Shown here: piece by piece, positions 3,267-53,001 of the stretch | Numbering within the stretch: position 1 is the first letter of the stretch | Layout of the letters: every line of letters starts with the position of its first letter | Virus record (IMG/VR): IMGVR_UViG_3300047550_004303 | Length of the DNA stretch: 64,000 bases | DNA from: a virus | Taxonomy: Duplodnaviria; Heunggongvirae; Uroviricota; Caudoviricetes | Reading direction: 5' to 3' (one strand) | Notes under the pieces: generated by a model | The model's input: the letters and a program-made list of their open reading frames with translations, nothing else | Databases searched by the model: none | What the model was told of the DNA's origin: nothing | Translations under genes and position numbers: made by a program

Positions 3267-3297
3267 TTTTACTCCGTTTTCTAACGTTTAAGCTTGA

Positions 3298-6893: not shown

Positions 6894-6897
6894 TTGT

Positions 6898-9151: not shown

Positions 9152-9234
9152 TTGTTTTTCCTTTATTAAATATGCGAGTTCTAGTCGCTACGCAGTGGGT
9201 ACTGCATAAATTCACCCTATGTGAATATATGCAG

Positions 9235-15272: not shown

Positions 15273-15507
15273 GGTTTTTCCTTATAGATTTTGAAAACTT
15301 AGATTGATCTTTTACTCGTATTGCATTTAAAAGTTTTCTTTCAAGCAATTCAGCAGTTTCTTTGTCATAATGCTTGTTGATCATTTCAAGTAGATTAATG
15401 GCACTTGTAATTATGTTGTGGGCTCGGTTTTCCACAACATAATTAATGTCCCGATTCTTGCCTATCGATTCTAATTCTTCTAACAAGCTTCTAGTTTTCT
15501 TTTGCAT
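15262..15507 (-). CDS. hypothetical protein
   Basis: 81-aa ORF overlapping its neighbours. Confidence 0.35.
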   Translation of the reverse strand: MQKKTRSLLEELESIGKNRDINYVVENRAHNIITSAINLLEMINKHYDKETAELLERKLLNAIRVKDQSKFSKSIRKNHEV

Positions 15508-27896: not shown

Positions 27897-29231
27897 TTAA
27901 TTCAGCCAATCAGATAAGCTTTTATATGCCGCAAAAATTTTCTTTTTGTTTGGTGAATTCTTAACAAGATTTATGAAGTCATCTTCCTTAGGTAAATTCT
28001 TATCAAGATAAACCAAATATTTCAGATATTCTGGATTATCCCAAGGTAATATACTAAGCATAGAATCAGAAAAATATCCTGGCACATCCTTTAACTCTGC
28101 TGTAGTTGCTGATTTTAGTGCATCAAGAACCTTATCTTTATTTTGTCTAATAAACTCTATATTCTTGGGTTCCCTAGTCTTTATATGTATTAGTGTTGAT
28201 AAATTATTTTTCATTGCAGCCTCAAACTCATCTGGGTCTAAATTTTTCCCACTAGCCCAAAACATTTTATTATAACGTTTACTAGGATCAGCATATAACT
28301 TGTAACGCAATTTTTGTGGAATATACCTAAAAAGTATTTCCCAATCCCAACCATTAAGGTTTAATGTGTCACGCATCAAATATGGTTTTAATATTTCAAC
28401 ATCATCATTTTTTAACGCAATTGCTATATCACGTTTAAGTGAGGCTAATATTTGTTGAGTATCTACCCCTCTTTGTTGTTGCGTTTTAATTGTTTCTGGA
28501 CTGTATTTGTTATCTACAATACCTAATACACGTAATGGTGCCAAACTAAAAAATACAGCCTGTACTGGTTCTGCTTCATGTATTATGCCAGCACCTTCAT
28601 CTACTACACCATCTATACCTATTGATCTAAACAATTTGTTCCAGGAAACTATAGGATTTTGTCCATAATTTGGACCATAATAATTACTAAATCTATAGGT
28701 TACATACCATAATCTTCCACCTGGAAGATTTTTAAATTTGGCTCTTTCTGGTGCTAATTTTATACATAGCTCAAGTATACTAAGCCAATCTTTTGCTATT
28801 CCGTTCGGTATGTATATATCAGAATTTATTTTTGGTAATCGTTTTGCTACCTCTCTTAGTTTATCATAATAAAGTTCTTCATCATTAGTAGTCATTCGTC
28901 TAATATCAATAATATTACCACCAGCACTGAAAACAGCAGCATATGGTTGTTCGCCGGCATAAGGTAACGAATATCGCATTACTTTATCATCGCCGGCCCT
29001 TACCATAACATAACCTGCTGGATAGGCATAAATTCCTAATGGTGTATTAAACTTTGATCGTGGATTTATTCCTAATTTGGGCACTGCTACAAAACTTACG
29101 AAAAGATTTTTCAAATTAGTATTAGGCAATTGTGCGGCGGCATCATATGCTTGACGTATGTATTGATTTATTGAAACTTTAGGATTAAGTTCAGGATACT
29201 TACGGGCTTCAATTATTTCTATTGTTTTCAT
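27897..29231 (-). CDS. hypothetical protein, tandem paralog A
   Basis: 444 aa. Shares ...EARK.P.LNPKVS.NQYI...LGINPRS..NTPLGIY.YPA.YV..., RYS...LP(Y/F)AG.QPYA and GIDG.VD.G.GIIH..EP.QAVFFS with its neighbour. Confidence 0.55.
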   Translation of the reverse strand: MKTIEIIEARKYPELNPKVSINQYIRQAYDAAAQLPNTNLKNLFVSFVAVPKLGINPRSKFNTPLGIYAYPAGYVMVRAGDDKVMRYSLPYAGEQPYAAVFSAGGNIIDIRRMTTNDEELYYDKLREVAKRLPKINSDIYIPNGIAKDWLSILELCIKLAPERAKFKNLPGGRLWYVTYRFSNYYGPNYGQNPIVSWNKLFRSIGIDGVVDEGAGIIHEAEPVQAVFFSLAPLRVLGIVDNKYSPETIKTQQQRGVDTQQILASLKRDIAIALKNDDVEILKPYLMRDTLNLNGWDWEILFRYIPQKLRYKLYADPSKRYNKMFWASGKNLDPDEFEAAMKNNLSTLIHIKTREPKNIEFIRQNKDKVLDALKSATTAELKDVPGYFSDSMLSILPWDNPEYLKYLVYLDKNLPKEDDFINLVKNSPNKKKIFAAYKSLSDWLN

Positions 29232-29232
29232 A

Positions 29233-30663
29233 TTATTTGGCCTTGCGTTCCTTATCCAAATATTCTTGATAATTTAAAGATTCAATAATACCTAGTAAGT
29301 TATCAATGTCATCTTGATCAAAATTCGTTGGATCTTCCTTCATTTTCTTCAAAGCATATTGATAAATGTATTTTCTTCCACCTTCAAGACCCCAATTATT
29401 ATAGAAAGATTCGTATACACCTGGATATAAATCAATCAATCCCTTTAAAAATTCAGGATCGTCTTTTGGAAATTTTCTGAATAGCATTTTAGCTATATCT
29501 CTAATATCACTTATATAGATTCTTTTTAATGCTGTTTCTAACTTACCTTTACCGACATTACTCTTGAAGTCCTGTAATATCTTCATTATTGCATCTAGAT
29601 TATCAAATATAAGTTTTTCATGTTGTTGAAGTGCCCCGTAGTATAAAATTTTGGGGTCTTCAGATACAGCATATAAAAATTCATCTGCTTTTAATTTTTC
29701 ACCCAAATCAAGTGCTAGCCCTGATTTATAATCTTTATACAGCAAATATCTAACATCTTTGGGTATATACTTCAGTAAATACTTACTATCAAAATTTTCA
29801 CCATCAATGACACTACGTTGAAGTATTTGCCACACTATTGTTCCATAATCTTTCTCTTCTAGTGCATCTCGCAATCTTTCTAATTGCTCCTTCATCTTTA
29901 CACCACGGTCTTCGCCGGCTGACATTTGCTCAGGACTATATTTGTTTTGAACAGTAGAAATGAGTTTAGTCGCACCCAAACTAAAAAATACAGCCTGTGT
30001 GGGTTCACTAGGATGTATAATTCCTTTACCCGTATCAACACAACCGTCAATACCTAATGCCTGTCTGAATAATTCATTCCATGCTAGTGATGCAGGTTTT
30101 TTTAGATATGTCTCTATATAGCCACTTAATTTCCAAGTTGTGTACCATAATCTGCCACCGGGTAACATACGCTCTCTTGCATAGTCAACTGCGGCATTGA
30201 TTGTGTTGTCTACTATGTCAGGCCAATCTTTGCCGGGAGGAGCATAATGCTTAGTAAAATCTACAGCTGGCAATCGTTTTGCATAAGCACGAAGTTTATC
30301 ATTGTAGCGATATTCATCTTGCAAACTCATTGTATTCAAATGAACAATATTACCACGACCTTGAAAAATATTAGCATAGGGTTGTTTACCAGCAAAAGGT
30401 AAAGTAGCCATAGAATATCTTCCATGAGTAGATTCTATCACATAATCTGCTGGATATGAATAGATTCCTAATGGTGTATTGTAATGTGATCTAGGATTAA
30501 TACCTAACTTAGGTAATTGAGTAAAACTAATGAATAGATTAGTAATATCTGAACCTGGCAATTTACCTGCTGAGGCCATTGCCTGATCAATGTACTGATT
30601 TACTGATACTTTAGGATTAAGATCAGGGTTTTTTCTGGCTTCAAATATATCTATAAGGTGCAT
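29233..30663 (-). CDS. hypothetical protein, tandem paralog B
   Basis: 476 aa. Collinear similarity to paralog A. Confidence 0.55.
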   Translation of the reverse strand: MHLIDIFEARKNPDLNPKVSVNQYIDQAMASAGKLPGSDITNLFISFTQLPKLGINPRSHYNTPLGIYSYPADYVIESTHGRYSMATLPFAGKQPYANIFQGRGNIVHLNTMSLQDEYRYNDKLRAYAKRLPAVDFTKHYAPPGKDWPDIVDNTINAAVDYARERMLPGGRLWYTTWKLSGYIETYLKKPASLAWNELFRQALGIDGCVDTGKGIIHPSEPTQAVFFSLGATKLISTVQNKYSPEQMSAGEDRGVKMKEQLERLRDALEEKDYGTIVWQILQRSVIDGENFDSKYLLKYIPKDVRYLLYKDYKSGLALDLGEKLKADEFLYAVSEDPKILYYGALQQHEKLIFDNLDAIMKILQDFKSNVGKGKLETALKRIYISDIRDIAKMLFRKFPKDDPEFLKGLIDLYPGVYESFYNNWGLEGGRKYIYQYALKKMKEDPTNFDQDDIDNLLGIIESLNYQEYLDKERKAK

Positions 30664-30869
30664 TTAGATATTTATCTAAATGGCGAAAGGTCCCTAAAGG
30701 ACCTTTCTGTAAATGTTTTGTTAGTTATTACTTTACACTACCTAGCATAGTTAGGTTGCTGGGAATAATGATTGTCTGAATCTAAAAATAATATTTTTGA
30801 TAAATAAAAGTGCAGGTCGCGATGCTACCAACATCCACCCGCTCTAACAGTTGAAAAGGAACTATCAGC

Positions 30870-31595
30870 ATGAATATTTATTATGTTTACGCCTATTTAA
30901 GAAAAGATGGGACTCCGTATTATATTGGCAAAGGTAAAGAAAAACGTTATCTTGCTAAACACTCAGTTAAAATACCAAAAGATTTAACCAAAATAGTTTT
31001 TCTAGAAAAAAACCTAACTGAAATAGGTGCAATAGCCCTTGAACGTAGATATATTAAATGGTACGGCAGAAAAGATTTAAATACAGGGATATTACGAAAT
31101 AAAACAGACGGTGGTGAGGGAACGTCTGGTAGAATTTTTGAAGAGAAAACAATAAAAAAACTATCAATTGCCGCAACTGCAAATAATCTCAAAAAAACAG
31201 AGAATGGCTCTCATCCATTCTTAACAAGAGATAACATGAATGTAGCTAAAAAAATGGCAGAACAGAAAAAATTAAATTTTCAAACTATGAATAAAGATGA
31301 ATTATCTGAACTTTCTAAAAAAATAAATCAACAACGAGTTGAAAATGGAACACACAATTTTTTAAATAAAGAAACAGCTAGAAAAAATAATCAAATTCGT
31401 GTTGAGCAAGGAAATCATAATTTTCTTGGTAAAAATATAATAACTCTAATAGATAAAGACGGAAAAGGACATAGATTGCCTGTAGAAATTCTAGATGAAT
31501 GTAAGTCTACAGGAAAACCTATGTCCGAATGGACTTATGTTACTGCGGCTAGCAAAGAAGCTAGACGCAGAAAATTACTTAGAAATATTCCCTAG
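30870..31595 (+). CDS. GIY-YIG homing endonuclease (Seg-like)
   Basis: IYYVYAY...YYIGKG core, R/E catalytic region and three NUMOD3-like ENG(S/T)HNFL repeats. Its 3' end overlaps the SPFH gene by 21 nt. Confidence 0.85.
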
Positions 31596-32372
31596 CATAG
31601 TCAGATTACTTGGGATGATAATGGTCTGAACTTTTCCCGCTTTTACTGCTTCACTAATATTCAAAGTGGCCTGGGCTTGCATGAAAGCAATAGAACTCTG
31701 ACTGTTATTAGCCAGTGCTGCCATACGGCGAGCCTCAGCTTCGGCGGTCTTGACTTCAACTTCCTTTTGCTTAAGTTCATTCTTAGCACGAACCAGATCA
31801 TTAGCACTTGCTACAACCGAATCAGCAGGAACAACGTTACGAATCAGAACCTGACTGATAGCAATACTACCATCAAGCTTTTCTTCGGTCAAATTACGAA
31901 CAATTTCTTCCTTGATGAAGTTCTCCATTTCACTACGATTGTCACCCATATCTAGCGCATCGTACTTTCGTGCAGCCTTGTAAACTGCATTTCGTGCATT
32001 TTGCACTACATAATTGTACATCAGATAAACATCATCCTTGGTGATAGCGTGAAACGCCTTGTTCTTAGTAGAATAAATTTCACTTACCTGATTTGGATTG
32101 ATGTTATAAACTACCACAACATCAAAATCCTTCATGGTACTGTTGTCCTTAGCAACAGGAGTCATGTTCTCAATTGCCACATTGACATCCTTTACCGGGA
32201 ACGTCAATACATCACCGACAAGGGTTTGATTAAAACTACCAGGTTGAAGTTCACCGGGCTTGACTTGCTTGTCAAAGCCCACACGAACGCCTACTTCACC
32301 GGTTTCGATACGAGTGCAACCCGTAGCAAGAACAGCAGCGGCAAGAATACCAACACTAAAAATACGCTTCAT
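31575..32372 (-). CDS. SPFH/band-7 (prohibitin/HflC-like) lipoprotein
   Basis: Lipobox LATGC after the signal peptide (start taken at MKRIF with an AAGGAA RBS). SPFH core plus an Ala/Glu-rich coiled-coil tail. Confidence 0.65.
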
Positions 32373-32385
32373 TTTATATTTCCTT

Positions 32386-32481
32386 TCAGAGAACAACAGC
32401 GAAGATAAAAGCAGTAGCAGCAGCTACGCCAAGAGCAAAGTAGGCAACACGGCCAACAATATCCATAACAGACAACTTCAT
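32386..32481 (-). CDS. 31-aa single-TM peptide
   Basis: MKLSVMDIVGRVAYFALGVAAATAFIFAVVL with an AAGGAA RBS. It is below the ORF-track length cutoff. Confidence 0.3.
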   Translation of the reverse strand: MKLSVMDIVGRVAYFALGVAAATAFIFAVVL

Positions 32482-32513
32482 ACAATTTCCTTTCTTAGGA
32501 ACAAGTTAATTTT

Positions 32514-32690
32514 TTAAAAGATTAGCACAATAGACACTAGAGCTACCATTGTCAGCGAAGCACATAGTGTACTAAAGGCAATCAATTTTGTCAACTGCCA
32601 TTTTTCTTTTTCAGTAGTAAGACGAAATGCCGTGATACTAAAGAAAAATAGTCCGAACAGAATCAAGAATGAAAGAATACCTTTCAACAT
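32514..32690 (-). CDS. 58-aa two-TM peptide
   Basis: MLKGILSFLILFGLFFFSITAFRL...LIAFSTLCASLTMVALVSIVLIF. Coordinates are approximate. Confidence 0.3.
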   Translation of the reverse strand: MLKGILSFLILFGLFFFSITAFRLTTEKEKWQLTKLIAFSTLCASLTMVALVSIVLIF

Positions 32691-32693
32691 GGG

Positions 32694-32957
32694 TTACAAC
32701 ACTCGATTTTCAGAAATCGCCTGACGGAATTCAACGAATGACCCAGCGAAAGTACGACGATAGTTAGAACTATTCAGCCGACCCTGCGCCTTAGCACGAC
32801 CGTAGGCCTTATTGAAATTATCACGATCACTGCACCATGATTCAGCGAATTCTACTCCGCCGGGCACTTCACGATATGCGATAGTGGCACCGCCAAAGTT
32901 GCTGATACGATCAGAGGTGTCAACGTTACGAACGTGCATGAAATAAACCTTAGACAT
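32694..32957 (-). CDS. hypothetical protein
   Basis: Start at MSKVYFMHVR... with an AGGAG RBS. The longer listed ORF would overlap the upstream gene. Confidence 0.45.
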   Translation of the reverse strand: MSKVYFMHVRNVDTSDRISNFGGATIAYREVPGGVEFAESWCSDRDNFNKAYGRAKAQGRLNSSNYRRTFAGSFVEFRQAISENRVL

Positions 32958-33003
32958 TTTACTTACTCCTTTAGATTGAAAAAACACACTGACAAATTTC
33001 TGA

Positions 33004-33288
33004 TTAATCACTAGAATCGATACCGTAGCTATCGCCACAGTGTTCACAGGTGTAGACCACGTAGCAGCGACCTGCAACATGAGCCACATACTTGTGTTCG
33101 CACGGCGTACCATCAGGACGCAGACGAACTTTGCCCGTTGCCTTCATGCTCATGGTCTGACCACCGCAATTACGGCAAGCGATAGTATCAGTTTCCTTGT
33201 CGTAGCCAGCAGTACGACGATAGTTACCAGCCGGGACACGGCCAGTGCCGTTGCACACGGGGCAAACACCATGTTGATGAGAATGCAT
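33004..33288 (-). CDS. Cys-rich zinc-ribbon protein
   Basis: CPVC...CRNC...C..C...CEHC motifs. AAGGAAA RBS. Confidence 0.5.
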   Translation of the reverse strand: MHSHQHGVCPVCNGTGRVPAGNYRRTAGYDKETDTIACRNCGGQTMSMKATGKVRLRPDGTPCEHKYVAHVAGRCYVVYTCEHCGDSYGIDSSD

Positions 33289-33311
33289 TTCTATTTCCTT
33301 TGAGTTAAAGA

Positions 33312-33545
33312 TTAACCAACAACAATGACACGAGGAGATTGAGCGCGATCAAACATATGTTGACCTTGCTGCGGAGCCGTGAAGAAATCAGTCTTGAACT
33401 TGCGATCTTCAACGCCTTCCCAAACACGCTTGATGAACTTCGCACGGAACGTGCCGTCATGATGAATACCGACGACCTTGCCAACCATGTAGCAGTTGTC
33501 AATACCGTTGAAATCCAGGCTCTTAACGATGTCACCAACTTGCAT
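33312..33545 (-). CDS. hypothetical protein
   Basis: Preferred over the overlapping alternative frame 33305..33538. A GGAG RBS sits in the conserved leader cassette. Confidence 0.5.
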   Translation of the reverse strand: MQVGDIVKSLDFNGIDNCYMVGKVVGIHHDGTFRAKFIKRVWEGVEDRKFKTDFFTAPQQGQHMFDRAQSPRVIVVG

Positions 33546-33578
33546 TTCTTGCTCCGTTATCTAACTGTCTAGAAAGAC

Positions 33579-33607
33579 ATTATATGCGATTTGGGATTTA
33601 TTGTCAA
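33579..33607 (-). promoter_or_regulatory. sigma70-type early promoter (cassette copy 1)
   Basis: Minus strand: TTGACA, 17 nt, TATAAT. The 55-bp cassette is near-identical to the copies at 34761, 35031 and 39189. Confidence 0.6.
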
Positions 33608-33924
33608 GCCGACACAGGATCAACAGCTTCAATAAAACTGAGCAGCAGTTTGTTGATGTTGCGGGAACCGACAGGGTTCTGGCTATGAACCACGAACTCA
33701 GTAGGGAACACCTTGATATCACCATCCAGATAGAGATTAATCATACAGTAGATGAAGACCATGCTGGTGTCTTCGCCTCCCAGATCATGATCATATGAGA
33801 TAAAGTTGGGCACACCACGATCAAGCACCATCTTCATGGCTTCAGCAGAACTACGAACAATGACCCATTCCTTACCATCGTTGGGTGGGAATCGCTCGTC
33901 ATCAATGAACATCCGATAGGTCAT
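33604..33924 (-). CDS. cREC-like (cyclic-phosphate-processing receiver-like) domain protein
   Basis: MFIDDER.P...W..VRS...A..M.....P..IS.DHDLG...HS.NP. Assigned by motif resemblance only. AAGGAG RBS. Confidence 0.4.
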   Translation of the reverse strand: MTYRMFIDDERFPPNDGKEWVIVRSSAEAMKMVLDRGVPNFISYDHDLGGEDTSMVFIYCMINLYLDGDIKVFPTEFVVHSQNPVGSRNINKLLLSFIEAVDPVSA

Positions 33925-33952
33925 CAGGTACTCCTTGTGTTTCAGTGTGTGT

Positions 33953-33981
33953 ACTATAGCACCGATCAAAGACCCTGTCAA
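33953..33981 (-). promoter_or_regulatory. sigma70-type promoter
   Basis: TTGACA, 17 nt, TATAGT on the minus strand, 30 nt upstream of the RBS of ORF 33604..33924. Confidence 0.5.
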
Positions 33982-34253
33982 TCAACCTTTGGGATCAACA
34001 GGGTCCCACGCCATAGAAAAATTTTACCCACCGGAATGGACCACGCTGCGTCTTCAAGAATCTCAAAGACCACTGTCTCAGCGGCGTTGTCTACCTTGTA
34101 TGGACGAAAACGACCTTTTGAACCTCGGATAATATACTGCGCCGCGTCATTGCTGATCTCCATCAGCATGATGCCGTTTTCGTCCCGAACAATATAACCC
34201 ACCGTGTGCTCCTTACGGTCAAAATGTCGGTTAAACCACTCGCGAATATTCAT
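33978..34253 (-). CDS. hypothetical protein
   Basis: Start at MNIREWF with an AGGAGT RBS. Probably co-transcribed from the promoter at 34792. Confidence 0.4.
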   Translation of the reverse strand: MNIREWFNRHFDRKEHTVGYIVRDENGIMLMEISNDAAQYIIRGSKGRFRPYKVDNAAETVVFEILEDAAWSIPVGKIFLWRGTLLIPKVD

Positions 34254-34266
34254 TTTTACTCCTGAA

Positions 34267-34755
34267 TCAAGCAGCCTTCGAAAGATATTCCGAGACCTGC
34301 TCACCGGTGACCGAATCACCGTTACGCATCGTATAGACCACACGGTAGTTCTCACGACCGCCAGCCATCAGCATGTCATACTGCTCGGACTTGCTAGCAA
34401 CCTCACGGCGCATGCAGCCGTACTCACCGTTCTCGACGGTGCGCCGAGCGATCCAGCGACCCTGTTCCCAGAACAGTTCGAACGGGGTTTCCCACTCATC
34501 ACAGACCTTGGCGTCATCATCGAGGATAGACCAATCAACAACGTACTCCTCGAAACCCTCATTGCGGGATTCGATCAGAGCCTTCAGGGTCGGGATGCCC
34601 TGATCCTTGACCTTGAGGACCTGAGCAACCGTCAGGTTCGGGATAACGTAGGTGTCGCCACCCTTGCACTTCCAGTACTGCGGGCAAGCACCCTCGCCAT
34701 CCCAATCGTGGGCGCCGTAGTTTTCGCGGATTTGAGTGCTGATGACGATCTTCAT
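34267..34755 (-). CDS. hypothetical protein
   Basis: 162 aa. The conserved leader and a GGAG RBS lie immediately upstream. Confidence 0.5.
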   Translation of the reverse strand: MKIVISTQIRENYGAHDWDGEGACPQYWKCKGGDTYVIPNLTVAQVLKVKDQGIPTLKALIESRNEGFEEYVVDWSILDDDAKVCDEWETPFELFWEQGRWIARRTVENGEYGCMRREVASKSEQYDMLMAGGRENYRVVYTMRNGDSVTGEQVSEYLSKAA

Positions 34756-34791
34756 GAATTTGCTCCGTGTTTCTCAACTGTCTAGAAAGAC

Positions 34792-34820
34792 ATTATATGA
34801 GTTTTGGGATTTATTGTCAA
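34792..34820 (-). promoter_or_regulatory. sigma70-type early promoter (cassette copy 2)
   Basis: TTGACAATAAATCCCAAAACTCATATAAT on the minus strand. Confidence 0.6.
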
Positions 34821-35016
34821 CCGAGAAAATCGTAAGAGGTCTCGTTACCGACCTTACCAAACGCAACCGCGGCCGTGATGTTTTCCCAAATTGCATTGAA
34901 AACACGAACAGCAATGTCGCTGTCAACAGTTTCCAAAAACAAGGTACCGTTGTAAAAGTAAGCGTTGGTATCGGTCACAGACTTGACAACTTTCAGGACT
35001 TTTGCTTCGTTGATCA
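34817..35016 (-). CDS. hypothetical protein
   Basis: Start at MINEAKV, 11 nt downstream of the cassette GGAG. Confidence 0.4.
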
Positions 35017-35052
35017 TTTCGTTTGCTCCGTGTCTCAACTGTCTAGAAAGAC

Positions 35053-35081
35053 ATTATATGAGTTTTGGGATTTATTGTCAA
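35053..35081 (-). promoter_or_regulatory. sigma70-type early promoter (cassette copy 3)
   Basis: Identical -35, spacer and -10 to copy 2. Confidence 0.6.
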
Positions 35082-35090
35082 GAAGAAATA

Positions 35091-35447
35091 TTACAGATTG
35101 TACGGGAATACCAACTCCCAAACAGCATAGTGAAACAAGGGCTCAGGACCCATGGGATCAGCGCCACCCAAATAAGTGTATTTGGAGATATTTTCGTTTT
35201 GTCTCAAAATACTTTCTACATCGCTAACCAAAAAATTATAGGACTTTTTGTCTCTTTGTAATGCAGGACTGTCAATATGAATTTCCAAATGTGCTTTGAA
35301 TTCGTTGATCCAGTTTGTGGTAATTCTATATTGTTTGGATTTGAAAGTCCTGGGAAACTCTTTAGTAATTGCAGTAATACTTTTCTTGAGCGCCCGTTCT
35401 TTTTTAGGAGAAATCTTCGGGGTATTGTTGATTTCGTTAATTCGCAT
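35091..35447 (-). CDS. hypothetical protein
   Basis: 118 aa, in an AT-rich patch inside the GC-rich block. Confidence 0.4.
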   Translation of the reverse strand: MRINEINNTPKISPKKERALKKSITAITKEFPRTFKSKQYRITTNWINEFKAHLEIHIDSPALQRDKKSYNFLVSDVESILRQNENISKYTYLGGADPMGPEPLFHYAVWELVFPYNL

Positions 35448-35570
35448 AGACTATTTCCTTCTGAGGATAGTCAGATATTTATCTTAAACCAGAACAACTT
35501 GAATTTGACGACAAAATAAATCATCACATACCAATTCAATTGGTAGAGTATTCTCAAGACAAAAAAATTG

Positions 35571-35737
35571 TCACCCCAGCGTGTAGACCACGACACCATC
35601 ATAAGTGTCAACGACCTTTACAGTGCAACCACGGTCGATCCAACGTTGTGCAGCGGCCTTATAGGAGTCTGCGGCATAAGCAGGATCAACACCGACCAGT
35701 TCACCATTGTCCGCGTTATAGACATAGATATCAAACA
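35571..35737 (-). CDS. hypothetical small protein
   Basis: Start at MFDIYVY with a GGAGAG RBS. Confidence 0.4.
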
Positions 35738-35768
35738 TCTTGCTCTCCGTTGCGTTCAACATGAATAC

Positions 35769-35797
35769 AGTATATCAAATACCATATTATTTGTCAA
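35769..35797 (-). promoter_or_regulatory. sigma70-type promoter
   Basis: TTGACAAATAAT, then TATACT with a 17-nt spacer. Confidence 0.5.
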
Positions 35798-35969
35798 TTT
35801 TCTTTTCCTTACATTCATAGACTGTACCACCTATATAGAATGCACCTAACTTTTGGCAATCTTCTACAACCGAATGGAAGGCGCCTGCCCTACCAAATCC
35901 ATGGATGCAAATTGCTGTCGCTATAGTAGCGATACAATAAAAGATAGCAAAACCGAGTTCTTTATTCAT
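35787..35969 (-). CDS. small membrane protein
   Basis: MNKELGFAIFYCIATIATAICIHGF... has one TM segment. AGGAG RBS. Confidence 0.35.
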   Translation of the reverse strand: MNKELGFAIFYCIATIATAICIHGFGRAGAFHSVVEDCQKLGAFYIGGTVYECKEKKIDK

Positions 35970-36034
35970 TATGTTTTTTACTCCTGTTTGTTGAGATATG
36001 GCAAAAATAACCCCACTCAAGGTAGGGTTATTCA

Positions 36035-37081
36035 TCAACCATCGTTCTTAATGAGCCACCGGTTGGAAATTGCCTTGAAACTAGGACCACCAAACGTATT
36101 GCACTTGAACACCAGCCCTTCACGATTGGTCTTAGAATTCAGTGCGCTAACACCATCAGCCATAGTCAACAGTCCAGTAACCCATTCTTCAATCACCATT
36201 TCAGTAGCAAGCACAGGAACATGCTTGATACCGTGAGTGTCAGCAAACACACGACGCTCAAGGGGACCAAGGTATTCTCCGCGATCAATATCGTAGATAT
36301 CAAACAAGCGGAAATCTTGACCCTTAACGTTGTAGGCATTACCTTGAATACCTTCACCGATCAATTCACCTTGCAGGGCAAGATTGCGACCAGTTTGACG
36401 AACCTTTTCAATCAACTGTTCACGACGAGCCACAGCCCACAGGGTATTGCCAGCAGTTTCCTTGAGTGCCCAATTACGGCTGCAAACACCTTCACGATCA
36501 CCATGAACGAAAACAGTCATAGAACTGCCATCGAGCTTTTCAGTAACCTCCCAAGTAAAGGCACTGTTGCCTTGCCAAGTTTTGAGTTCTTCAGTGAGAT
36601 TCTGGATACGCTCTTGATCAGTCTTGGGGATCACAGAAGGAAAATTTCCTTCAACATCACCAGCCAGTTGAGCAGGAATAGGAGCCTCCCACTTTTGAAT
36701 GCCAAGCCGCTCACTAATATCAACATTCACCTGACTCCACCAGAAACGGCGGTCAGATCCAGGAAATGCCGTTTCAATAGGCAGCAACAGCCCTTGACTG
36801 ACCTGGCCACGCAGCTTTACAGTGCGAAGACGTTCACCCTTGACACCATTAAACTCACGGGGTTCTTGACCCTTACTGAGAAATGGGGCAACAGCATGAG
36901 GAACCCAAGAATCAATTTCCAGGTAGACGGCAAGGTCACCTGCCTTGAATTCACCCTTCTTGATGACAACTACCCAGCCGCCAACCACAGCGGCTTCAAT
37001 AGCATCCGCACCTTCAATCGGACGAATTTCATCAATCTTGCGGATCGTAGTCATTTTACGTTCGGACATTTTAAACTCCAT
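36035..37081 (-). CDS. ATP-dependent RNA ligase (N-terminal OB domain plus nucleotidyltransferase, Rnl5/DraRnl-like)
   Basis: Motif I KLDGSS (KxDG lysine nucleotidyltransferase). The N-terminal IRPIEGADAIEAAVVGGWVVV is an OB-type fold. 348 aa. Confidence 0.65.
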   Translation of the reverse strand: MEFKMSERKMTTIRKIDEIRPIEGADAIEAAVVGGWVVVIKKGEFKAGDLAVYLEIDSWVPHAVAPFLSKGQEPREFNGVKGERLRTVKLRGQVSQGLLLPIETAFPGSDRRFWWSQVNVDISERLGIQKWEAPIPAQLAGDVEGNFPSVIPKTDQERIQNLTEELKTWQGNSAFTWEVTEKLDGSSMTVFVHGDREGVCSRNWALKETAGNTLWAVARREQLIEKVRQTGRNLALQGELIGEGIQGNAYNVKGQDFRLFDIYDIDRGEYLGPLERRVFADTHGIKHVPVLATEMVIEEWVTGLLTMADGVSALNSKTNREGLVFKCNTFGGPSFKAISNRWLIKNDG

Positions 37082-37098
37082 TAAATTTCAATTTTAGA

Positions 37099-37127
37099 AA
37101 TGTATTTAATTACTGATTTATTGTCAA
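37099..37127 (-). promoter_or_regulatory. sigma70-type promoter upstream of RNA ligase
   Basis: TTGACAATAAATCA, 17 nt, TACATT. Confidence 0.4.
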
Positions 37128-37837
37128 GCAACCCGGGGACGATTGACAACAGTTTGCTTCAGGCCCTGATATTCGCCGTGCTCCTTGACGGTAGCCACAA
37201 ACTCAACAGCAGAACCCTTTTCATATTCGCTGCCGAACGAACCAAAATACACGACGGTAGAACCATCCACATCCACGTGGGTGATGTAACCAACACCGCT
37301 ATCGTAGTAATGAAACTTGGGACGATCAAAGGTCTTGACAAACTTAACCACACCCTTGAAGGTCATACGCTTGCCCACTTCGCCGATATGCTGGCTAGTG
37401 TTAGCTTCGGCGACAACAACAGGACGCTCCAGCGGAGTAATTTCACCCTGACGGCTCCAAAGCAATTCAGTCTTGCCGGGATCAGGACTAGTGCCGCTAC
37501 GCATATCGCCCACGTAGCCCAGCTTGTATTGAGCAACCACACCCTCACGGTCAACCACAAACTTCCAGGTCACCGGACGGACACTCCTAGTACCATAACC
37601 AGCCCAACGAACGTAGGCATTGACGGCGACCATGACCTGACCTTCAGTCAGATCCACATTGAACAGGTTCTTAGCGGAAGCGGTGTCCCACAGATTTTCA
37701 CGGCTGAAAACCTTGAACAGAAAATCCGCCTGCTTGATGCTCTTGAACTGACCGTTGTTGAACTTGACCAGACCGCTGAGAGTCTTGAACGTGTCAGCGT
37801 CTTGTTGGCTAGCGAATTGAAAAGTCATTTCAGACAC
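37124..37837 (-). CDS. hypothetical protein
   Basis: 237-aa ORF with a GGAG RBS. Confidence 0.5.
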   Translation of the reverse strand: MSEMTFQFASQQDADTFKTLSGLVKFNNGQFKSIKQADFLFKVFSRENLWDTASAKNLFNVDLTEGQVMVAVNAYVRWAGYGTRSVRPVTWKFVVDREGVVAQYKLGYVGDMRSGTSPDPGKTELLWSRQGEITPLERPVVVAEANTSQHIGEVGKRMTFKGVVKFVKTFDRPKFHYYDSGVGYITHVDVDGSTVVYFGSFGSEYEKGSAVEFVATVKEHGEYQGLKQTVVNRPRVA

Positions 37838-37858
37838 TCCGTTTGCTTACTGTTTTCA

Positions 37859-37887
37859 CAGTATAACAATTTTGGGAATATTTGTCA
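37859..37887 (-). promoter_or_regulatory. sigma70-type promoter
   Basis: TTGACAAATATTCC, 17 nt, TATACT. Confidence 0.5.
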
Positions 37888-37906
37888 AACTTTTTTACAA
37901 AAAAAT

Positions 37907-38098
37907 TTAAGGATTTACATTTACCGGACCAACAAATTCAGCCTTAGGTAGGTATTTGGACACTGCTGGATCATTGTCATGACGGTTGAAATCTACAGAA
38001 AACTTCAAAGCTTCAATTCTACTGTCAAAAAAATGTTCGCGGATAACGGTACGATTGGTTGTAGGATTTTGAATAATTTGAACCTTAAACTTACGCAT
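37907..38098 (-). CDS. hypothetical small protein
   Basis: 63-aa ORF. A degenerate cassette and TGATAAATAC lie upstream. Confidence 0.35.
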   Translation of the reverse strand: MRKFKVQIIQNPTTNRTVIREHFFDSRIEALKFSVDFNRHDNDPAVSKYLPKAEFVGPVNVNP

Positions 38099-38155
38099 GT
38101 TTTACCTCACAGTGTGATTAGTGTGTGGACTTATTGACATTGCCACACGTATTTA

Positions 38156-39187
38156 TCAAGGGCGAACGCAAGTAGCCCGTGCAAGACTCTTCCAGTTGGA
38201 AGCACTAATCTTCACCAGATCAGCCAGCTTGAGGCACATACGCAGGCTCATCTCACGAATCTTACTACGATTTTCCCACATGAAATCAAGAATTTCAACC
38301 TCTTGTTCCTTAGAGAAATCGTAATCAACGAACAGACCCGGATCAGCATCACGATAGACCTGACGGATGCGGAGCATCTTATCACGATCGGTGTTGATAG
38401 TCAGATCCAGGAAGTGACTGCGAGATTGCAGAGCCTCCATGTGCGGCTGAATCTTACTAGCCCGCTTGTTATCAAAGCTATTGTTGGTGATGAAGATGAT
38501 AGAACCGTTGAAATTGAAAGTGTTAGGAACACCTTCCTCACGCAGAAGACGAGAGTCCTTGTTATAAGAAATACGACGGGTCTTGCCCGAATCCAATGCA
38601 CCCTTCAGAATGTTGATAGCATCCTGATCTTCCCAGATATCGCAATCGTCAAAAACCAGGACATTCTTGGAATCACTATACTTATACAGCAGTGCGAACA
38701 GACCAATCGCAGACATAGTGCCCTTGACAATCTCGAAACGGGGCTTCTTACCAGCCAGCTTATCAAAAAGGCTAGCCTTTTGCAGTTGGGTATGAACACC
38801 ATGCGACTTACCGACACCGGGAGGGCCAGTGACGATCATTGCACGGATATCACCCGCAATGCAAGCACCGCTCATTTCATCAAGGATGCCAAAACGCTCC
38901 TTGATACGATCCATAGCCTGCTCATCAGTCTCAGACACAACTTCGGCAACAGCCTGAGCAACAGGGTGAACCGAAACCTGCTCGGGCATACCGTTGACAT
39001 ATTCAATGTCAGTGATAGCCTCAACCTTGACCTTGACAGACTCAATGTCAATATTGAATTGACCATCATTCTTGACGGTCACGTAGTTGCCAAGCTTGCC
39101 AGTCTGAAAGCCCTTGACGAGGGTAAAGACTTGATTCTTGACGGGTTGGTTGCGATAAGAACCATTGAGAATGCGAATAGTAGACAT
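38156..39187 (-). CDS. AAA+ family ATPase
   Basis: Walker A GPPGVGKSH and Walker B VLVFDDCD. Start at MSTIRIL with the cassette GGAG 8 nt upstream. Confidence 0.6.
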   Translation of the reverse strand: MSTIRILNGSYRNQPVKNQVFTLVKGFQTGKLGNYVTVKNDGQFNIDIESVKVKVEAITDIEYVNGMPEQVSVHPVAQAVAEVVSETDEQAMDRIKERFGILDEMSGACIAGDIRAMIVTGPPGVGKSHGVHTQLQKASLFDKLAGKKPRFEIVKGTMSAIGLFALLYKYSDSKNVLVFDDCDIWEDQDAINILKGALDSGKTRRISYNKDSRLLREEGVPNTFNFNGSIIFITNNSFDNKRASKIQPHMEALQSRSHFLDLTINTDRDKMLRIRQVYRDADPGLFVDYDFSKEQEVEILDFMWENRSKIREMSLRMCLKLADLVKISASNWKSLARATCVRP

Positions 39188-39219
39188 GTGTGCTCCGTGT
39201 TTCAACTGTCTAGAAAGAC

Positions 39220-39248
39220 ATTATATTAGATTGAGGATTTATTGTCAA
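39220..39248 (-). promoter_or_regulatory. sigma70-type early promoter (cassette copy 4)
   Basis: TTGACAATAAATCCTCAATCTAATATAAT with the conserved leader. Confidence 0.6.
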
Positions 39249-39402
39249 GCCTGAACATCACGTTCAAGCTTGGACAACATGCGGGCGATCTTGCGCTGGT
39301 GTTGCTTTGCAACAACACCACGATGCTTGGGGGCGGGGCCGCAGCAAGTGCAGCGCCAGCCACCGGGACCCACATGGGCGTGATGCTTTGCATTGAAAAG
39401 AC
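39245..39402 (-). CDS. small basic Cys-containing protein
   Basis: Start at MKTGLF with an AAGGAG RBS. Contains GPGGWRCTCCGP. Confidence 0.4.
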
Positions 39403-39436
39403 CAGTCTTCATGTCTGTGCTCCTTACTGTGTTCAC

Positions 39437-39465
39437 AGTATATAGCACAGAGGATTTATTGTCAA
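39437..39465 (-). promoter_or_regulatory. sigma70-type promoter
   Basis: TTGACAATAAATCC, 17 nt, TATACT. Confidence 0.5.
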
Positions 39466-39466
39466 A

Positions 39467-40129
39467 TTATAGGACCTTAAAATGAGAAAATTTATGGAAC
39501 TGAAAATCGCTATCGTGATATTTAAATTTGCCTTCTACTGTTATTTCTGACGTAGAAATAGATTTTTCCCAAATTGATAACAAAGGATTTTTCTTACCAA
39601 TCTCAGTCATATAGGCATTGTTATTTGCATCTTTAAACCAATACTCACAAGAAAATCTATTTTTGTGTTTTTTATCAACTTTACCGACATAGGTAAAAGT
39701 ACCTTTAAACTTAAGATTTGTTTTATCTTCACACGTTTTGTTCAAAGACTCGGTTACCTTAAGTACTTCCAAATCTTCATTGTACAGTTTAGGCAAACTT
39801 GTGATCATTGGAATGTCATCAACTAATACCTTTTTTCTATCCGAGGTTAAAAATGTCAGCAAATCTTCTTTGAATTTACTTAGATGTTTGCCCTTAAGTT
39901 TAGCAATGACTAATTTATTTTTGTAAAACTGTTCAATTGCTGATGCTAAAACATAATCGGCATGGGTCAACGCAGAGTCTACGATAGAATCCATGATACC
40001 AAATGTATTGTTATGGCGATACACAGCACAAGATAAAACCAATGTATCTACTTTACTTTCAAAGAAAGTAACCGGCTGACGTTTCGGTTGATAATCTTCA
40101 TTAAAAATATCTACTGTTGTTAGATTCAT
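39467..40129 (-). CDS. hypothetical protein
   Basis: 220-aa ORF. AT-rich composition returns here. Confidence 0.45.
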   Translation of the reverse strand: MNLTTVDIFNEDYQPKRQPVTFFESKVDTLVLSCAVYRHNNTFGIMDSIVDSALTHADYVLASAIEQFYKNKLVIAKLKGKHLSKFKEDLLTFLTSDRKKVLVDDIPMITSLPKLYNEDLEVLKVTESLNKTCEDKTNLKFKGTFTYVGKVDKKHKNRFSCEYWFKDANNNAYMTEIGKKNPLLSIWEKSISTSEITVEGKFKYHDSDFQFHKFSHFKVL

Positions 40130-40597: not shown

Positions 40598-40843
40598 TCA
40601 CCATTCTTCGTCTTCTTCATCATCTGATTCATCATTTTCAATATCATTAAAATCTTCATCTTGCAAATAGTCTTTCAATGCAGTTAGTACTACTTTGTCC
40701 TTAAAAGATTCTTTGATATCATCGGCATCATAACCATAATCAATAAAAAGACTTACCATATTTTCTGCTACTTCTTTTGTATCGTTTTGGTTAAGATGAG
40801 ACTTTACTAAATCCCAAAGTTCGTTAGCAATCATCAAACTCAT
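40598..40843 (-). CDS. hypothetical acidic protein
   Basis: 81 aa with a poly-D/E C-terminus. ATGA overlap with uvsX. Confidence 0.4.
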   Translation of the reverse strand: MSLMIANELWDLVKSHLNQNDTKEVAENMVSLFIDYGYDADDIKESFKDKVVLTALKDYLQDEDFNDIENDESDDEEDEEW

Positions 40844-41898
40844 TCTGGTGCCTCCTCAAATGTAGTATTTACATTTGCATCCAATTTTTTAAATGCTAAC
40901 ATTACTTTGTCTAGACAACCATCTTCGTTCTTTTCCCATGCCTTGCGAAACTTTTTGATACTTGTACCATCTGGAAACACAGCCTTAAGACTATTGCCAT
41001 CCTTTTGCAGGATACTTTTTCCTTCAAACATATCAACAAGTCCGCTATGAGGATTCATACCAGTTTCATATGGAATTTTGATTTGTACACTTTCAAATGG
41101 CTTTGCGTATCGTGTTTTCATGATCTTACATGCACTACGAATACCACGTACTTCTGTAATCTTATTGCCTTCTTCATCTTCCTTTAGCTTCAACTTACGC
41201 ATTGCTACCACAATAGAACTTGCGTAAATAAAACCTTGACCTCCGCTGATCTTATCATCAGGGTCAAACATGTCTTGACTTGCATATGTGTGATTAGTAG
41301 CAACCAAACCAATATTTAGATCACCGAACATGTTGACGCAATTGCGAACCAATGCAGTTAGTGCCTTAGGCTTTCTACCCATATCACCCTTCAGATCACC
41401 ACTTTCAAACTGATTTACATCAGTAGGTGTCAACAGCATACCTAGACTGTCCAACACAAACAATACCTTTGGACGTTCGGCTTCTGGGATTACCTTATAT
41501 TCTTTGACGAATTCACTGATAAGTTTAGCCACGTCATCAATCATTGCCATATTAATCTTCAGCAATTTATTTTCTGATGTATCAACATCAAGATTGCGTA
41601 GCCACTGTTCATCAAGTGCGTTTTCACTGTCAATAAGAATTACATAGATTCCTTGTTCTTGTGCGTTTCTAATTAGATTGCCAGAACAGATGAAACTTTT
41701 TCCTGATCCTGATTCACCTGCAAAGACAGTAACCTTGCCAAGAGGAATGCCCTTATTGTAATCACCTGAGATTAGATAATTCAATGCATGATTACCAGTT
41801 GAAATCCAATCGGTTGGATCGTTGAATCCAAGGCTAATGCCATCGATAGATTTAGTTATTGATTTACGAAATTTTGATAGGTCAAAGGGCTTTGTCAT
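40840..41898 (-). CDS. uvsX: RecA-family recombinase (UvsX-like)
   Basis: Walker A GESGSGKS and a RecA core layout. 352 aa. Confidence 0.7.
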   Translation of the reverse strand: MTKPFDLSKFRKSITKSIDGISLGFNDPTDWISTGNHALNYLISGDYNKGIPLGKVTVFAGESGSGKSFICSGNLIRNAQEQGIYVILIDSENALDEQWLRNLDVDTSENKLLKINMAMIDDVAKLISEFVKEYKVIPEAERPKVLFVLDSLGMLLTPTDVNQFESGDLKGDMGRKPKALTALVRNCVNMFGDLNIGLVATNHTYASQDMFDPDDKISGGQGFIYASSIVVAMRKLKLKEDEEGNKITEVRGIRSACKIMKTRYAKPFESVQIKIPYETGMNPHSGLVDMFEGKSILQKDGNSLKAVFPDGTSIKKFRKAWEKNEDGCLDKVMLAFKKLDANVNTTFEEAPE

Positions 41899-51308: not shown

Positions 51309-51706
51309 TTTTTGTATCCTTTGAAGGGTTTTATCGGAGAGGTTTTATCAACATCATCTAATTCTTCACTTCCTGGCGAACTTACCATAGTTTTACCTTT
51401 TTTGCCGATTTTTTTCAAAGCCTGATCAATTACCTTACCTACATCCTTATCAAAACTACTTACAACCTGTTTTTCATTCCATAATGTCTCAGCTTCAAAT
51501 TTTGGTTTGAAGTTATTTACACCATCATCTATGCTTGTTCCTCTAACATCAGCTATAGCAACACCAAAACGATACAAATCATAGAAATCTTGGTTTTTCA
51601 ATTGATCTACAGTATAAGTGTAGGGTAATGTTTTAGCAGCAACATCTAATCCGTCGTGGATGCCATCAAGTGATGTTTGTTCAGTAATAAATTCTTTTGC
51701 TCTCAT
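51305..51706 (-). CDS. internal-protein-like small protein (CTS-like N-terminus)
   Basis: N-terminus MRAKEFITEQ. C-terminus IKPFKGYKK, shared with the neighbouring gene. Confidence 0.4.
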   Translation of the reverse strand: MRAKEFITEQTSLDGIHDGLDVAAKTLPYTYTVDQLKNQDFYDLYRFGVAIADVRGTSIDDGVNNFKPKFEAETLWNEKQVVSSFDKDVGKVIDQALKKIGKKGKTMVSSPGSEELDDVDKTSPIKPFKGYKK

Positions 51707-52713
51707 GTTGGTTCAACCAGTAGTTGTGAATAAATGGTATGCGTTAAATTATTAGAAGTGATTGGATTACATAATATTCGTAAATTTGAACCAGATATAG
51801 CCATATCATATCTACATATTGGAGTTCCTATAAATGTTGTGCCATACGCAGAAAACACAACACTACTATTGTCATTACTTATCTGTGCTGATAAAGTAAT
51901 GTTTTGGCTATTAGCAAAGTTATCTTTGCTTCTAACTGTAAACATTGCACTATTAAAGTTAGATATTTCAGTATCAAATATAATTTGTCCAGGGGTATTA
52001 CCTGTAGTATTAGCACTTTCTGGTACACTAGCGGTATTGAATAACGTTGTAAAATTGTTGTTGATCTTACCGAAAGCAGTTCTTAGTGGATCACCTGTAC
52101 CATCGTTGGGCAATGCACCAATATTGATTATTTCTTGTGCATTAGTAGCCGGGGTCGATAATAAATCAAAAACGACTGGATCTGATACAACCATTGAAGT
52201 TTGTACTGTGATTTCAGTTTGGCTTACTAATGGTTCTGGGTCTAATACTTCAATTGTTATTTTGCTATTCAATAGATCAAAAATTTGTTGGAAATTATCG
52301 TTGATCTTAAGAAAAGCTTGATGCCAGTTATCCGCATACTTTTTACCTAATATTATTGGTTGAAAATTTACATTACCCAACCCCTCTATCGAAGAAACAA
52401 TATTACGTACATTTGCAAAATTATTATTTATTTTGGTAAAAGCAACCATAAAACTGTCACCTTTACCATCGTTAGGTAAAACACCTGTACTAACTAGTTC
52501 AGGTTGTAATTCTGTAGTACCAAAATATAAATTAAAAAAGTTAAACAATAACACAAAATTATTGTTTATCTTATTGAACGCTAATCTAAATGAATCACCA
52601 GTGCCATCGTTGACCGACACACCTGTGTTTATATATTCGGCGATTAATCCATTTGGAAAGTTAGAAAGAGCATTGTATATGCTCAATGTGGTATTTGATT
52701 CTTGAACTGACAT
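51703..52713 (-). CDS. structural protein with tandem G(A/V)LPNDG(T/K)GD..R.AF.KIN.NF repeats
   Basis: Three full and one partial copy of a roughly 55-aa repeat. TGATAAATAC lies immediately upstream. Confidence 0.5.
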   Translation of the reverse strand: MSVQESNTTLSIYNALSNFPNGLIAEYINTGVSVNDGTGDSFRLAFNKINNNFVLLFNFFNLYFGTTELQPELVSTGVLPNDGKGDSFMVAFTKINNNFANVRNIVSSIEGLGNVNFQPIILGKKYADNWHQAFLKINDNFQQIFDLLNSKITIEVLDPEPLVSQTEITVQTSMVVSDPVVFDLLSTPATNAQEIINIGALPNDGTGDPLRTAFGKINNNFTTLFNTASVPESANTTGNTPGQIIFDTEISNFNSAMFTVRSKDNFANSQNITLSAQISNDNSSVVFSAYGTTFIGTPICRYDMAISGSNLRILCNPITSNNLTHTIYSQLLVEPT

Positions 52714-52728: not shown

Positions 52729-53001
52729 TTTTTTAGATGATACGCTGTCCATTATCTTTTTCTGCTGAATATACCATTCTTGCCAAGAGTTGACTAACTC
52801 ACTACAACTATAATATTTGGTATAATTTCTAGTCATAACTTTCAAGAAATCACTTAATATTACCTTTTCTTGGTCAATTGTTTCCAATTGTGGACATTTT
52901 TCCATTAATAATGGAGGTACATCAGGAAACTTTTGTTTGACTGGTACAGTAGTTGAACAACCCACAAGTAACACTGCTATGATAAGTATGGACCACTTCA
53001 T
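52726..53001 (-). CDS. o-spanin-like outer-membrane lipoprotein
   Basis: Signal peptide and lipobox LLVGC, a Pro-rich region and two further Cys. The start overlaps the upstream stop (ATGA). Confidence 0.45.
   Translation of the reverse strand: MKWSILIIAVLLVGCSTTVPVKQKFPDVPPLLMEKCPQLETIDQEKVILSDFLKVMTRNYTKYYSCSELVNSWQEWYIQQKKIMDSVSSKK

Follow-up and report, generated by a model that had tools for sequence, protein, structure and literature searches.

Repeated promoter modules termed PeSLs (promoter-early stem-loops) have been described in T4-like phages, namely RB49/phi1, PST/T4 and nt-1/KVP40 (Arbiol et al. 2010, PMC2839356; Comeau et al. 2014, PMC4122927). Early and late phage genes have also been reported to differ in their synonymous codons, with the late genes matching the tRNAs of the phage (Mioduser et al. 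2017, PMC5683454; Shigella phage Sf14, PMC12482277). Here we analyse a GC-rich block located between approximately 31.6 and 39.5 kb of a 64,000-nt stretch of DNA (hereafter the window) from the Caudoviricetes record IMGVR_UViG_3300047550_004303. The block carries promoter cassettes that share several features with PeSLs: in each case a module of about 50-70 nt, built from a near-consensus sigma70 promoter, a Shine-Dalgarno sequence and a start codon, is repeated, its copies cluster in hyperplastic regions ahead of small genes that mostly have no assigned function, and they coincide with breakpoints of indels and replacements between close relatives. We consider it probable that the block represents the early-gene hyperplastic region of an uncultured giant myovirus, in which genes are joined by modules of stop codon, promoter and ribosome-binding site, are shuffled in the manner of PeSLs, and are written in a codon dialect of their own.

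Origin of the window

The UvsX gene of the window (40840-41898, minus strand) adjoins the block and encodes a protein with 68-70% amino acid identity to those of Sinorhizobium phage Phosso, Agrobacterium phage Atu_ph07 and Rak2-like giant phages, the closest isolates by UvsX being Phosso and Atu_ph07 at no more than 70%. Genes near the block are syntenic with both of these phages, which carry other content between the conserved genes flanking it, marking the position as hyperplastic. The promoter motif and the ATPase gene of the block recur in hundreds of IMG/VR contigs, for example of 348,701 and 359,563 nt, and the clade as a whole comprises more than 300 such contigs, some of approximately 350 kb. 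Thus, the UvsX identity, the synteny and the recurrence in IMG/VR place the window within an abundant, uncultured clade of giant myoviruses. No nucleotide match to the block is found among 50,697 phage records or, by megablast, in a plasmid collection, and the cassette has no match in isolate phages.

Relatives were retrieved from viral and metagenomic contigs with the exact 20-mer TATAATGTCTTTCTAGACAG, and the close relatives compared below (L003, L004, L007, L010 and L016) have 89-99% nucleotide identity to the window. Copies of the 20-mer in Bartonella rattimassiliensis, a Saprospiraceae metagenome-assembled genome and one IMG/VR contig (L006, L017-L019) are devoid of the -35 box and leader and are probably unrelated; in two B. 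rattimassiliensis scaffolds (L018, L019) and one IMG/VR contig the 20-mer lies inside a longer repeated sequence.

Promoters and cassettes

All nine promoter sites listed for the block in the preliminary description are present, with -10 elements ending at 33579, 33953, 34792, 35053, 35769, 37099, 37860, 39220 and 39437. Eight of the nine score at least 11/12 with a 17-nt spacer, four of them 12/12, and the promoter at 37099 is degenerate (-10 TACATT, 10/12). The same promoter type recurs outside the block at 59070, 59537 and 60223, as had been proposed, and additionally at 3325, a site absent from the earlier list. Across the window, 11 promoters reach at least 11/12 with a 17-nt spacer, where Markov simulations give 1.1 (maximum 4), and all 11 reside on the coding (minus) strand; the extended -35 motif matches 11 times against an expectation of 0.7. 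In a logo of 284 distinct promoters of the clade, the ATAAAT directly behind TTGACA (cassette positions 7-12, e.g. window 39242-39237) is kept at 1.0-1.4 bits, which is unusual for a sigma70 spacer. This extension supplies a second in-frame stop (TGA CAA TAA) and may act either as a factor-binding site or as a back-up in-frame stop. An AT-rich upstream element is not seen in the same logo, where positions -24 to -4 hold less than 0.2 bits each.

Four promoters form part of a cassette of approximately 62 nt whose copies, as previously noted, are near-identical, with the similarity running from TTGACA to the ribosome-binding site. The segment TGTCTTTCTAGACA occurs exactly four times in the window, compared with 0.73 expected. 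The leaders are A-rich, all Shine-Dalgarno sequences contain GGAG, and in the cassettes the ribosome-binding site ACGGAG, also recognized earlier, is located 6-9 nt ahead of the ATG. Copy 1 (39185-39248, minus strand, as are all cassettes and promoters that follow) comprises TTGACA-N17-TATAAT, TGTCTTTCTAGACA, leader and ACGGAG and leads into the ATG of the ATPase gene; bases 2-4 of its TTGACA are at the same time the TGA stop of the upstream 55-aa gene. Copy 2 (35015-35081) precedes a 66-aa gene (34817-35017), whereas copy 3 (34753-34820) precedes a 162-aa gene and has the upstream stop inside its -35 box, these two copies being identical from TTGACA through GTTGAGA. Copy 4 (33543-33607) lies ahead of a 77-aa gene, and the TGA stop of the cREC gene is embedded in its -35 box. 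The TGA of TTGACA serves as the upstream stop in 22 of 53 distinct junctions, and most of the other stops are found within a few nucleotides of the -35 box. Thus, the unit is one of stop, promoter, leader and ribosome site, spanning approximately 60-65 nt.

The remaining promoters of the block deviate from this cassette, three of them being related promoter and leader elements. One of these, the first promoter of the block (39410-39465), combines TATACT with CTGTGAACACAG ahead of the 55-aa gene. The other two, likewise with TATACT, are located at 37826-37888, ahead of a 234-aa gene, and at 35736-35797, ahead of a 55-aa gene, where the TAA of the extended -35 motif provides the stop of the upstream gene. 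The promoter of the cREC gene (33922-33981, TTGACAG...TATAGT) occupies a position at which relatives have a canonical cassette. Similarly, the RNA ligase gene is preceded by a degenerate half-cassette (37067-37127) with an intact extended -35, the weak -10 TACATT and an AT-rich leader, where L003, L007 and L010 carry a full cassette.

The conserved leader hairpin suggested previously is not borne out. The palindrome is present as DNA, with its 5' arm at cassette positions 29-33, position 29 being the last T of TATAAT. This arm overlaps the -10 box and therefore lies upstream of any plausible start of that promoter and is absent from its transcript. Since A38 and G39 are the sole purines in the start-site range, AGACAG is the expected beginning of the transcript. 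The window and its relatives supply 21 distinct cassette variants, in which we observe nine broken pairs and no compensatory change; every change falls in the 5' arm, while the 3' arm, TAGACAGT, is the same in all of them. Folding from the predicted start gives leaders with no more structure than shuffled sequence, and an Rfam search finds no family match in the block. Across the clade the palindrome is not kept: both the commonest variant, TATAATACATACATAGACAG, and the commonest discriminator, ACATACAT, are without it. Taken together, the invariant TAGACAGT, the broken pairs, the unstructured leaders and the palindrome-free variants point to the predicted transcript start, rather than a hairpin, as the conserved feature.

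A LexA-box-like reading of the palindrome (CTGT-N8-ACAG) was rejected, the first half-site being ATGT and the element not conserved across the clade. In different promoters (cassette positions 21-45 of 229 promoters), the -10 box is overlapped or adjoined by short palindromes of at least 10 kinds, with examples at window positions 59565 (CTTCAAGCTTGAAG) and 39465 (ACTGTGAACACAGT); their frequency is approximately 2-fold above shuffles and 1.3-fold above a swap control.

Gene exchange at the cassettes

Six breakpoints between the window and its close relatives coincide with cassettes. L003 is missing two genes at the 33607/34267 boundary (33607|34267) and has a replacement at 35081|36028, L004 and L007 have an extra gene between duplicated cassettes at 33543/33610, and L016 has an extra gene at 34760/34823, while relatives differ from the window at 33924|33977 and 37072|37126. 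In addition, the 3' end of the cREC gene and the cassette behind it are followed by three different genes in three contigs (the window, L007:10544 and L011:340), and the gene MTKTEQKIL is found behind at least three different upstream flanks. The proposal of a portable early promoter and leader cassette that drives a set of small genes is thus well supported, as indel and replacement breakpoints fall at cassettes and identical cassettes join different gene pairs. The sub-parts of the cassette, namely spacer, discriminator and leader, assort in many combinations, as repeated recombination or gene conversion among copies would produce, and one and the same gene can be preceded by cassettes that differ in the middle segment only (L007:10165 versus L016:163).

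We suggest that recombination between such near-identical modules would insert, delete or swap genes within and between related phages while leaving expression intact. The recombination system of the phage itself, with UvsX encoded nearby, is the presumed agent, and the process would correspond to the PeSL mechanism in a form without the stem-loop.

Codon usage of the promoter-proximal genes

Most of the window has a GC content per kb of 0.30-0.39, which rises to 0.38-0.51 between 32 and 39 kb, and 200-nt segments from 32.7 to 39.4 kb reach 0.44-0.585, the latter being the peak. The jump in composition noted previously is therefore real by sliding windows, but the figure of 50-60% given for it was too high, the GC content being 44-58% locally and approximately 46-50% per kb. 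AT-rich islands at 35.1-35.5 and 35.8-36.0 kb are present as described, together with a further one at 37.8-38.1 kb, and a second, milder GC island is located at 57-59 kb. The syntenic 41 kb of Atu_ph07 contain no comparable GC islands, and the trait is therefore specific to the lineage of the window.

This composition follows the promoters gene by gene. Every gene directly behind such a promoter (approximately 30 families from the window and 13 loci) has a third-position GC content (GC3) of 0.37-0.74, nearly all at 0.40 or above, while most core genes have 0.13-0.30. GC3 is also raised at three promoters outside the block: a promoter at 59031-59098, with the upstream stop in its -35 box, is followed by a MoxR-like AAA gene (GC3 0.44), the promoter at 59518-59565 by a 141-aa gene (0.44) and that at 3264-3325 by a 395-aa gene (0.43). 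We refer to the genes behind these promoters as early, a class inferred from promoter type. The fraction of A at third positions (A3) is 0.14 in early genes compared with 0.37, whereas that of T (T3) is 0.39 in both classes and that of A at second positions (A2) is 0.34 versus 0.35. Lysine content is not reduced in early genes and their amino acid content is phage-like. The purged codons are TTA, AGA, ATA, AAA, ACA, CCA and GTA, all ending in A, and are replaced by G- and C-ending codons with the T-ending ones kept: TTA falls from 0.41 to 0.01, AGA from 0.47 to 0.01, ATA from 0.35 to 0.01 and AAA from 0.70 to 0.15. AAG accounts for 0.85 of Lys codons and CTG is the favoured early Leu codon, whereas GAA stays at 0.70 of Glu codons and CAA, at 0.56, is not avoided. 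The effective number of codons (Nc) is 44.3, compared with 59.9 predicted from GC content at synonymous third positions (GC3s).

The bias extends across the clade, where the median A3 is 0.20 in 197 promoter-proximal genes and 0.33 in 872 others (p=3e-65) with equal T3, and it is retained in ATPase orthologs at 75-81% amino acid identity (A3 0.06-0.13). Polarised singletons comprise 174 changes from G/C to A/T (S>W) and 175 in the reverse direction (W>S) in the block and 118 and 116, respectively, in the flanks, with implied equilibrium GC contents of 0.46 and 0.35, although polarisation by parsimony is imperfect with 3-6 sequences and tends to make such counts equal. The GC-richness is better explained as the codon dialect of this promoter class than as foreign DNA.

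tRNA arrays of the clade

No tRNA genes are found in the window, its close relatives or 80 ATPase-anchored loci. Eleven other clade loci, retrieved by the promoter motif, encode 112 tRNAs, with up to 30 in 9.6 kb (L103), and have many small genes in common with the cassette regions of the clade. The arrays, which are located in L103, L178, L208, L152, L102 and six further loci, are interspersed with the same promoter type. Anticodons of the UNN type, whose tRNAs decode the A-ending codons that early genes avoid, dominate the 4- and 6-fold families among the 112 tRNAs, including Ala-UGC (6/6), Pro-UGG (6/6), Val-UAC (4/5), Leu-UAA plus Leu-UAG (7/10) and Arg-UCU plus Arg-UCG (6/9); Ile-UAU is also present, and tRNA-Leu(CAG) is not found among the 112.

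Early genes would have to be translated by the naive tRNA pool of the host right after infection, which is the likeliest explanation for the avoidance of A-ending codons, while the rest of the genome would be written for A/T-ending codons that are decoded by the clade's own tRNA arrays. We infer that the codons of early genes suit the tRNAs of the host, and those of all other genes the tRNAs of the phage. More broadly, and as a tentative proposal that we hold possible without calling it probable, one genome may contain two dialects separated in time: a mobile pool of early cassettes, exchanged between phages and almost free of NNA codons, and a remainder written for approximately 30 phage tRNAs, with the cassette acting as a universal adaptor. 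As part of the same tentative proposal, the NNA-free early genes could be read at once by naive host tRNAs, or could be read despite an attack by the host on U34 tRNAs.

Alternative explanations

The block contrasts sharply in composition with its flanks, is hyperplastic and mosaic, shows a mild excess of A/T-ward third-position singletons, and has a relative, Phosso, with approximately 49% GC in the syntenic region. These features would suit DNA acquired so recently, from a host or from GC-richer phages, that it has still to drift towards AT-richness, and horizontally acquired host-like DNA was one of two origins considered in the preliminary description. However, a GC-rich donor would lower A3 and T3 alike, as would GC-biased gene conversion, whereas A-ending codons alone are depleted and T3 remains unchanged; GC-biased gene conversion was rejected on this ground. 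The bias is moreover codon-specific (AAG 0.85 versus GAG 0.30), is seen in approximately 200 promoter-proximal genes of the clade and is kept by diverged orthologs, including ones with saturated synonymous divergence. The genes belong to old phage families without a nucleotide match in the phage and plasmid collections, and the share of S>W changes is well under what the regime of the flanks predicts. When the block is tested as a genomic island, which would show donor-like composition at all codon positions and similarity outside phages, neither T3 nor A2 differs, and the gene families are those of phages or metagenomes. Foreign origin is therefore disfavoured and appears very unlikely to us, and the other origin considered earlier, selection on early mRNA, is favoured by a loss of A3 that is codon-specific, clade-wide and conserved. 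Such selection need not involve the host tRNA pool: A-ending codons might be avoided to escape a putative host or phage endoribonuclease that cuts A-rich RNA, or for independence from U34 tRNAs destroyed by host anticodon nucleases. The A depletion is indeed specific to strand and codon position, two genes of the block, for an RNA ligase and a cREC cyclic-phosphate-end protein, have functions of the RNA-repair type, and the most strongly avoided two-fold codon is Lys AAA, whose reader, tRNA-Lys(UUU), is the classic target of PrrC. Nevertheless, GAA and CAA are not avoided although they are U34-read, and the leaders themselves are rich in A, so that we regard this explanation as unlikely.

With respect to the cassette, the palindrome and leader could constitute a regulatory target, either as an RNA hairpin for a RegA/RegB-like factor or an RNase, or as the DNA operator of a repressor by which early promoters are turned off. 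This would agree with the exact conservation of TGTCTTTCTAGACA in all four copies, with the invariance of TAGACAGT within the cassette family and with the presence of GGAG in every Shine-Dalgarno sequence. Among 229 distinct clade promoters, 37% have an inverted repeat of at least 5 bp that overlaps the -10/+1 region, compared with 18.5% in shuffles, yet a swap control already gives 29%, and the promoter variants counted are not mutually independent, leaving the enrichment weak and confounded. The hairpin is itself weak (approximately -4 kcal/mol), its 5' arm takes in the final base of the -10 box and so is missing from the transcript of that promoter, and the broken pairs, the lack of compensatory changes, the palindrome-free TATAATACATACATAGACAG and the negative Rfam search likewise speak against a target of this kind. 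For the RegA/RegB-type control proposed earlier we find no evidence beyond the GGAG, although the approximately 85 proteins of the window were not all scanned for RegA or RegB. A regulatory target is accordingly rather improbable. A dedicated site-specific recombinase, acting in an integron-like manner as opposed to general homologous recombination, might also produce such an array, in which gene cassettes carry promoters and a palindromic core and their sub-modules assort in many combinations. The switch points, however, are not at one position, the pair L007:10165 and L016:163 points to patchy gene conversion, Pfam and PHROGs scans reveal no recombinase among the block proteins, and the palindrome is not conserved across the clade; we consider such a recombinase highly improbable.

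Several observations weigh against the interpretation of the block as a shuffled early region with a codon dialect that is set by host tRNAs. The strength of the dialect varies by subclade, the A3 of the ATPase gene ranging from 0.05 to 0.27 with 0.15-0.27 in the milder subclades. Third-position singletons of early genes lean towards A/T (S>W 111 versus W>S 84; 41 to A, 20 from A), a lean that is far smaller than the regime of the flanks predicts and that fits mutation-selection balance but also slow decay. First-position GC is somewhat raised too, indicating some shift in amino acids. The window and its closest relatives are themselves among the loci without tRNA genes, and only shared genes and promoter type link the arrays to the clade.

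Genes, terminators and insertions

The calls of an RNA ligase, a cREC protein and an AAA ATPase made earlier are confirmed, the first two by Pfam. The AAA-type ATPase gene (38156-39187; minus strand, like the other genes of this paragraph) is a T4 NrdC.10 homolog (phrog_1250) with a GC3 of 0.51, the RNA ligase gene (36035-37081) encodes an RNA_ligase domain and a PHA02142 OB fold, and the cREC_REC (cyclic-phosphate processing receiver) domain protein (33604-33924) was assigned by domain match. The gene of the 162-aa protein (34267-34755) is the most GC-rich (GC3 0.70), and none of its 904 metagenomic homologs has a function name. Four small genes at 32514-33545 (32514-32690, 32694-32957, 33004-33288 and 33312-33545) have no function assigned, and most small genes of the block are without a function or family match in Pfam and PHROGs. 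The last gene of the block (31575-32372) encodes an SPFH/Band_7 protein by Pfam.

Two strong hairpin terminators, and only two, bound the array. A strong intrinsic terminator behind the RNA ligase gene (35998-36033, minus strand; 12-bp stem and U run, z = -4.1) divides the block into two transcription units, and a 10-bp hairpin (30685-30707, minus strand) marks its downstream end; behind it comes GATAAATA, which is similar to a late promoter, ahead of the AT-rich gene that follows. This late-type motif often precedes AT-rich genes. In many of them (G/T)ATAAATA recurs 10-30 nt ahead of the start codon (examples at 3346, 9257-11077, 15262-15507, 29233-30663, 43335-46214, 51703-52713 and 52998-53453); this sequence is similar to the T4 late promoter TATAAATA and is probably the mark of a late class.

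A very AT-rich gene at the end of the block (30870-31595, plus strand; GC3 0.17) encodes a GIY-YIG-like homing endonuclease, a call that relies on the N-terminal motif as Pfam gave no match. The gene is flanked by an imperfect direct repeat of approximately 39 nt (30742-30780 and 31592-31630) derived from the 3' end of the SPFH gene, and L003 and L007 lack window 30781-31573 and with it the gene, which looks like a recent mobile insertion. In L003, a gene for a 249-aa GIY-YIG endonuclease (6164-6913, minus strand) interrupts the RNA ligase gene, leaving an OB-fold part at 6888-7301 and a catalytic part at 5461-6234, and no group I intron is detected there by Rfam.

The only Rfam match in the window is a freshwater-2 cis-regulatory RNA (9149-9226, minus strand; 68.8 bits, gathering score 49.9), which lies between two large AT-rich genes, upstream of 7910-9151, and so places this motif in a giant phage. 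The adjoining large genes 27897-29231 and 29233-30663 are apparently paralogs, and one L003 protein matches the downstream gene of the pair at 80% and the upstream one at 46%. Within a 959-aa gene (43335-46214), L010 is without approximately 1 kb (43579-44566) that has 95-99% identical flanks; this is a variable internal segment of a large conserved protein.

Comparison with known systems

With the present analysis, PeSL-type modular shuffling is seen beyond T4-like phages, in an abundant clade of uncultured giant phages, and the cassettes are of a leaner design that fuses stop codon, promoter and ribosome site. Within one genome, one promoter class goes together with a codon dialect that is strong and specific, and members of the clade have matching tRNA arrays. 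The question of why large phages carry tRNAs thereby becomes directly testable, with early genes predicted to be served by host tRNAs and late genes by phage tRNAs. The promoter logo combined with A3 could be used to classify early genes in metagenomic phage contigs without transcripts, and the cassettes represent ready-made parts comprising a strong promoter and a ribosome site.

Compared with PeSLs, the cassettes of the block have neither the upstream stem-loop nor an AT-rich upstream element; rather, the upstream coding sequence runs into the -35 box. A PeSL-style stem-loop or terminator upstream of the -35 is not consistently found, the 55 nt upstream of 11 promoters folding at z -1.9 to +1.8. 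The cassettes instead embed the upstream stop in TTGACA and carry the conserved ATAAAT extension, their clade consists of giant phages related to Atu_ph07 and Phosso, and the genes behind them have a distinct codon dialect, which has not been reported for PeSLs. Temporal differences in codon usage have reportedly been noted in T4 by Cowe and Sharp in 1991. Relative to the temporal codon differences in T4, Sf14 and other phages, the effect in the block is far larger (between the two gene classes, A3 0.08-0.14 versus 0.35-0.37 and GC3 approximately 0.5 versus 0.2-0.3), becomes visible as GC islands, and is coupled, gene by gene, with a single promoter type and with mobile cassettes.

In T4, GGAG is the cleavage motif of RegB and is found in the Shine-Dalgarno sequences of early mRNAs. 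The block leaders have this motif in common with T4 early mRNAs; however, GGAG in the block is simply a good ribosome-binding site, and the supposed hairpin lies outside the transcript. With integron arrays the block shares a tandem arrangement of small, exchangeable single-gene units separated by short conserved elements. In contrast to integrons, where neither an integrase nor an attC-type site has a counterpart found in the block, each unit of the phage block has a promoter of its own and is probably exchanged by homologous recombination.

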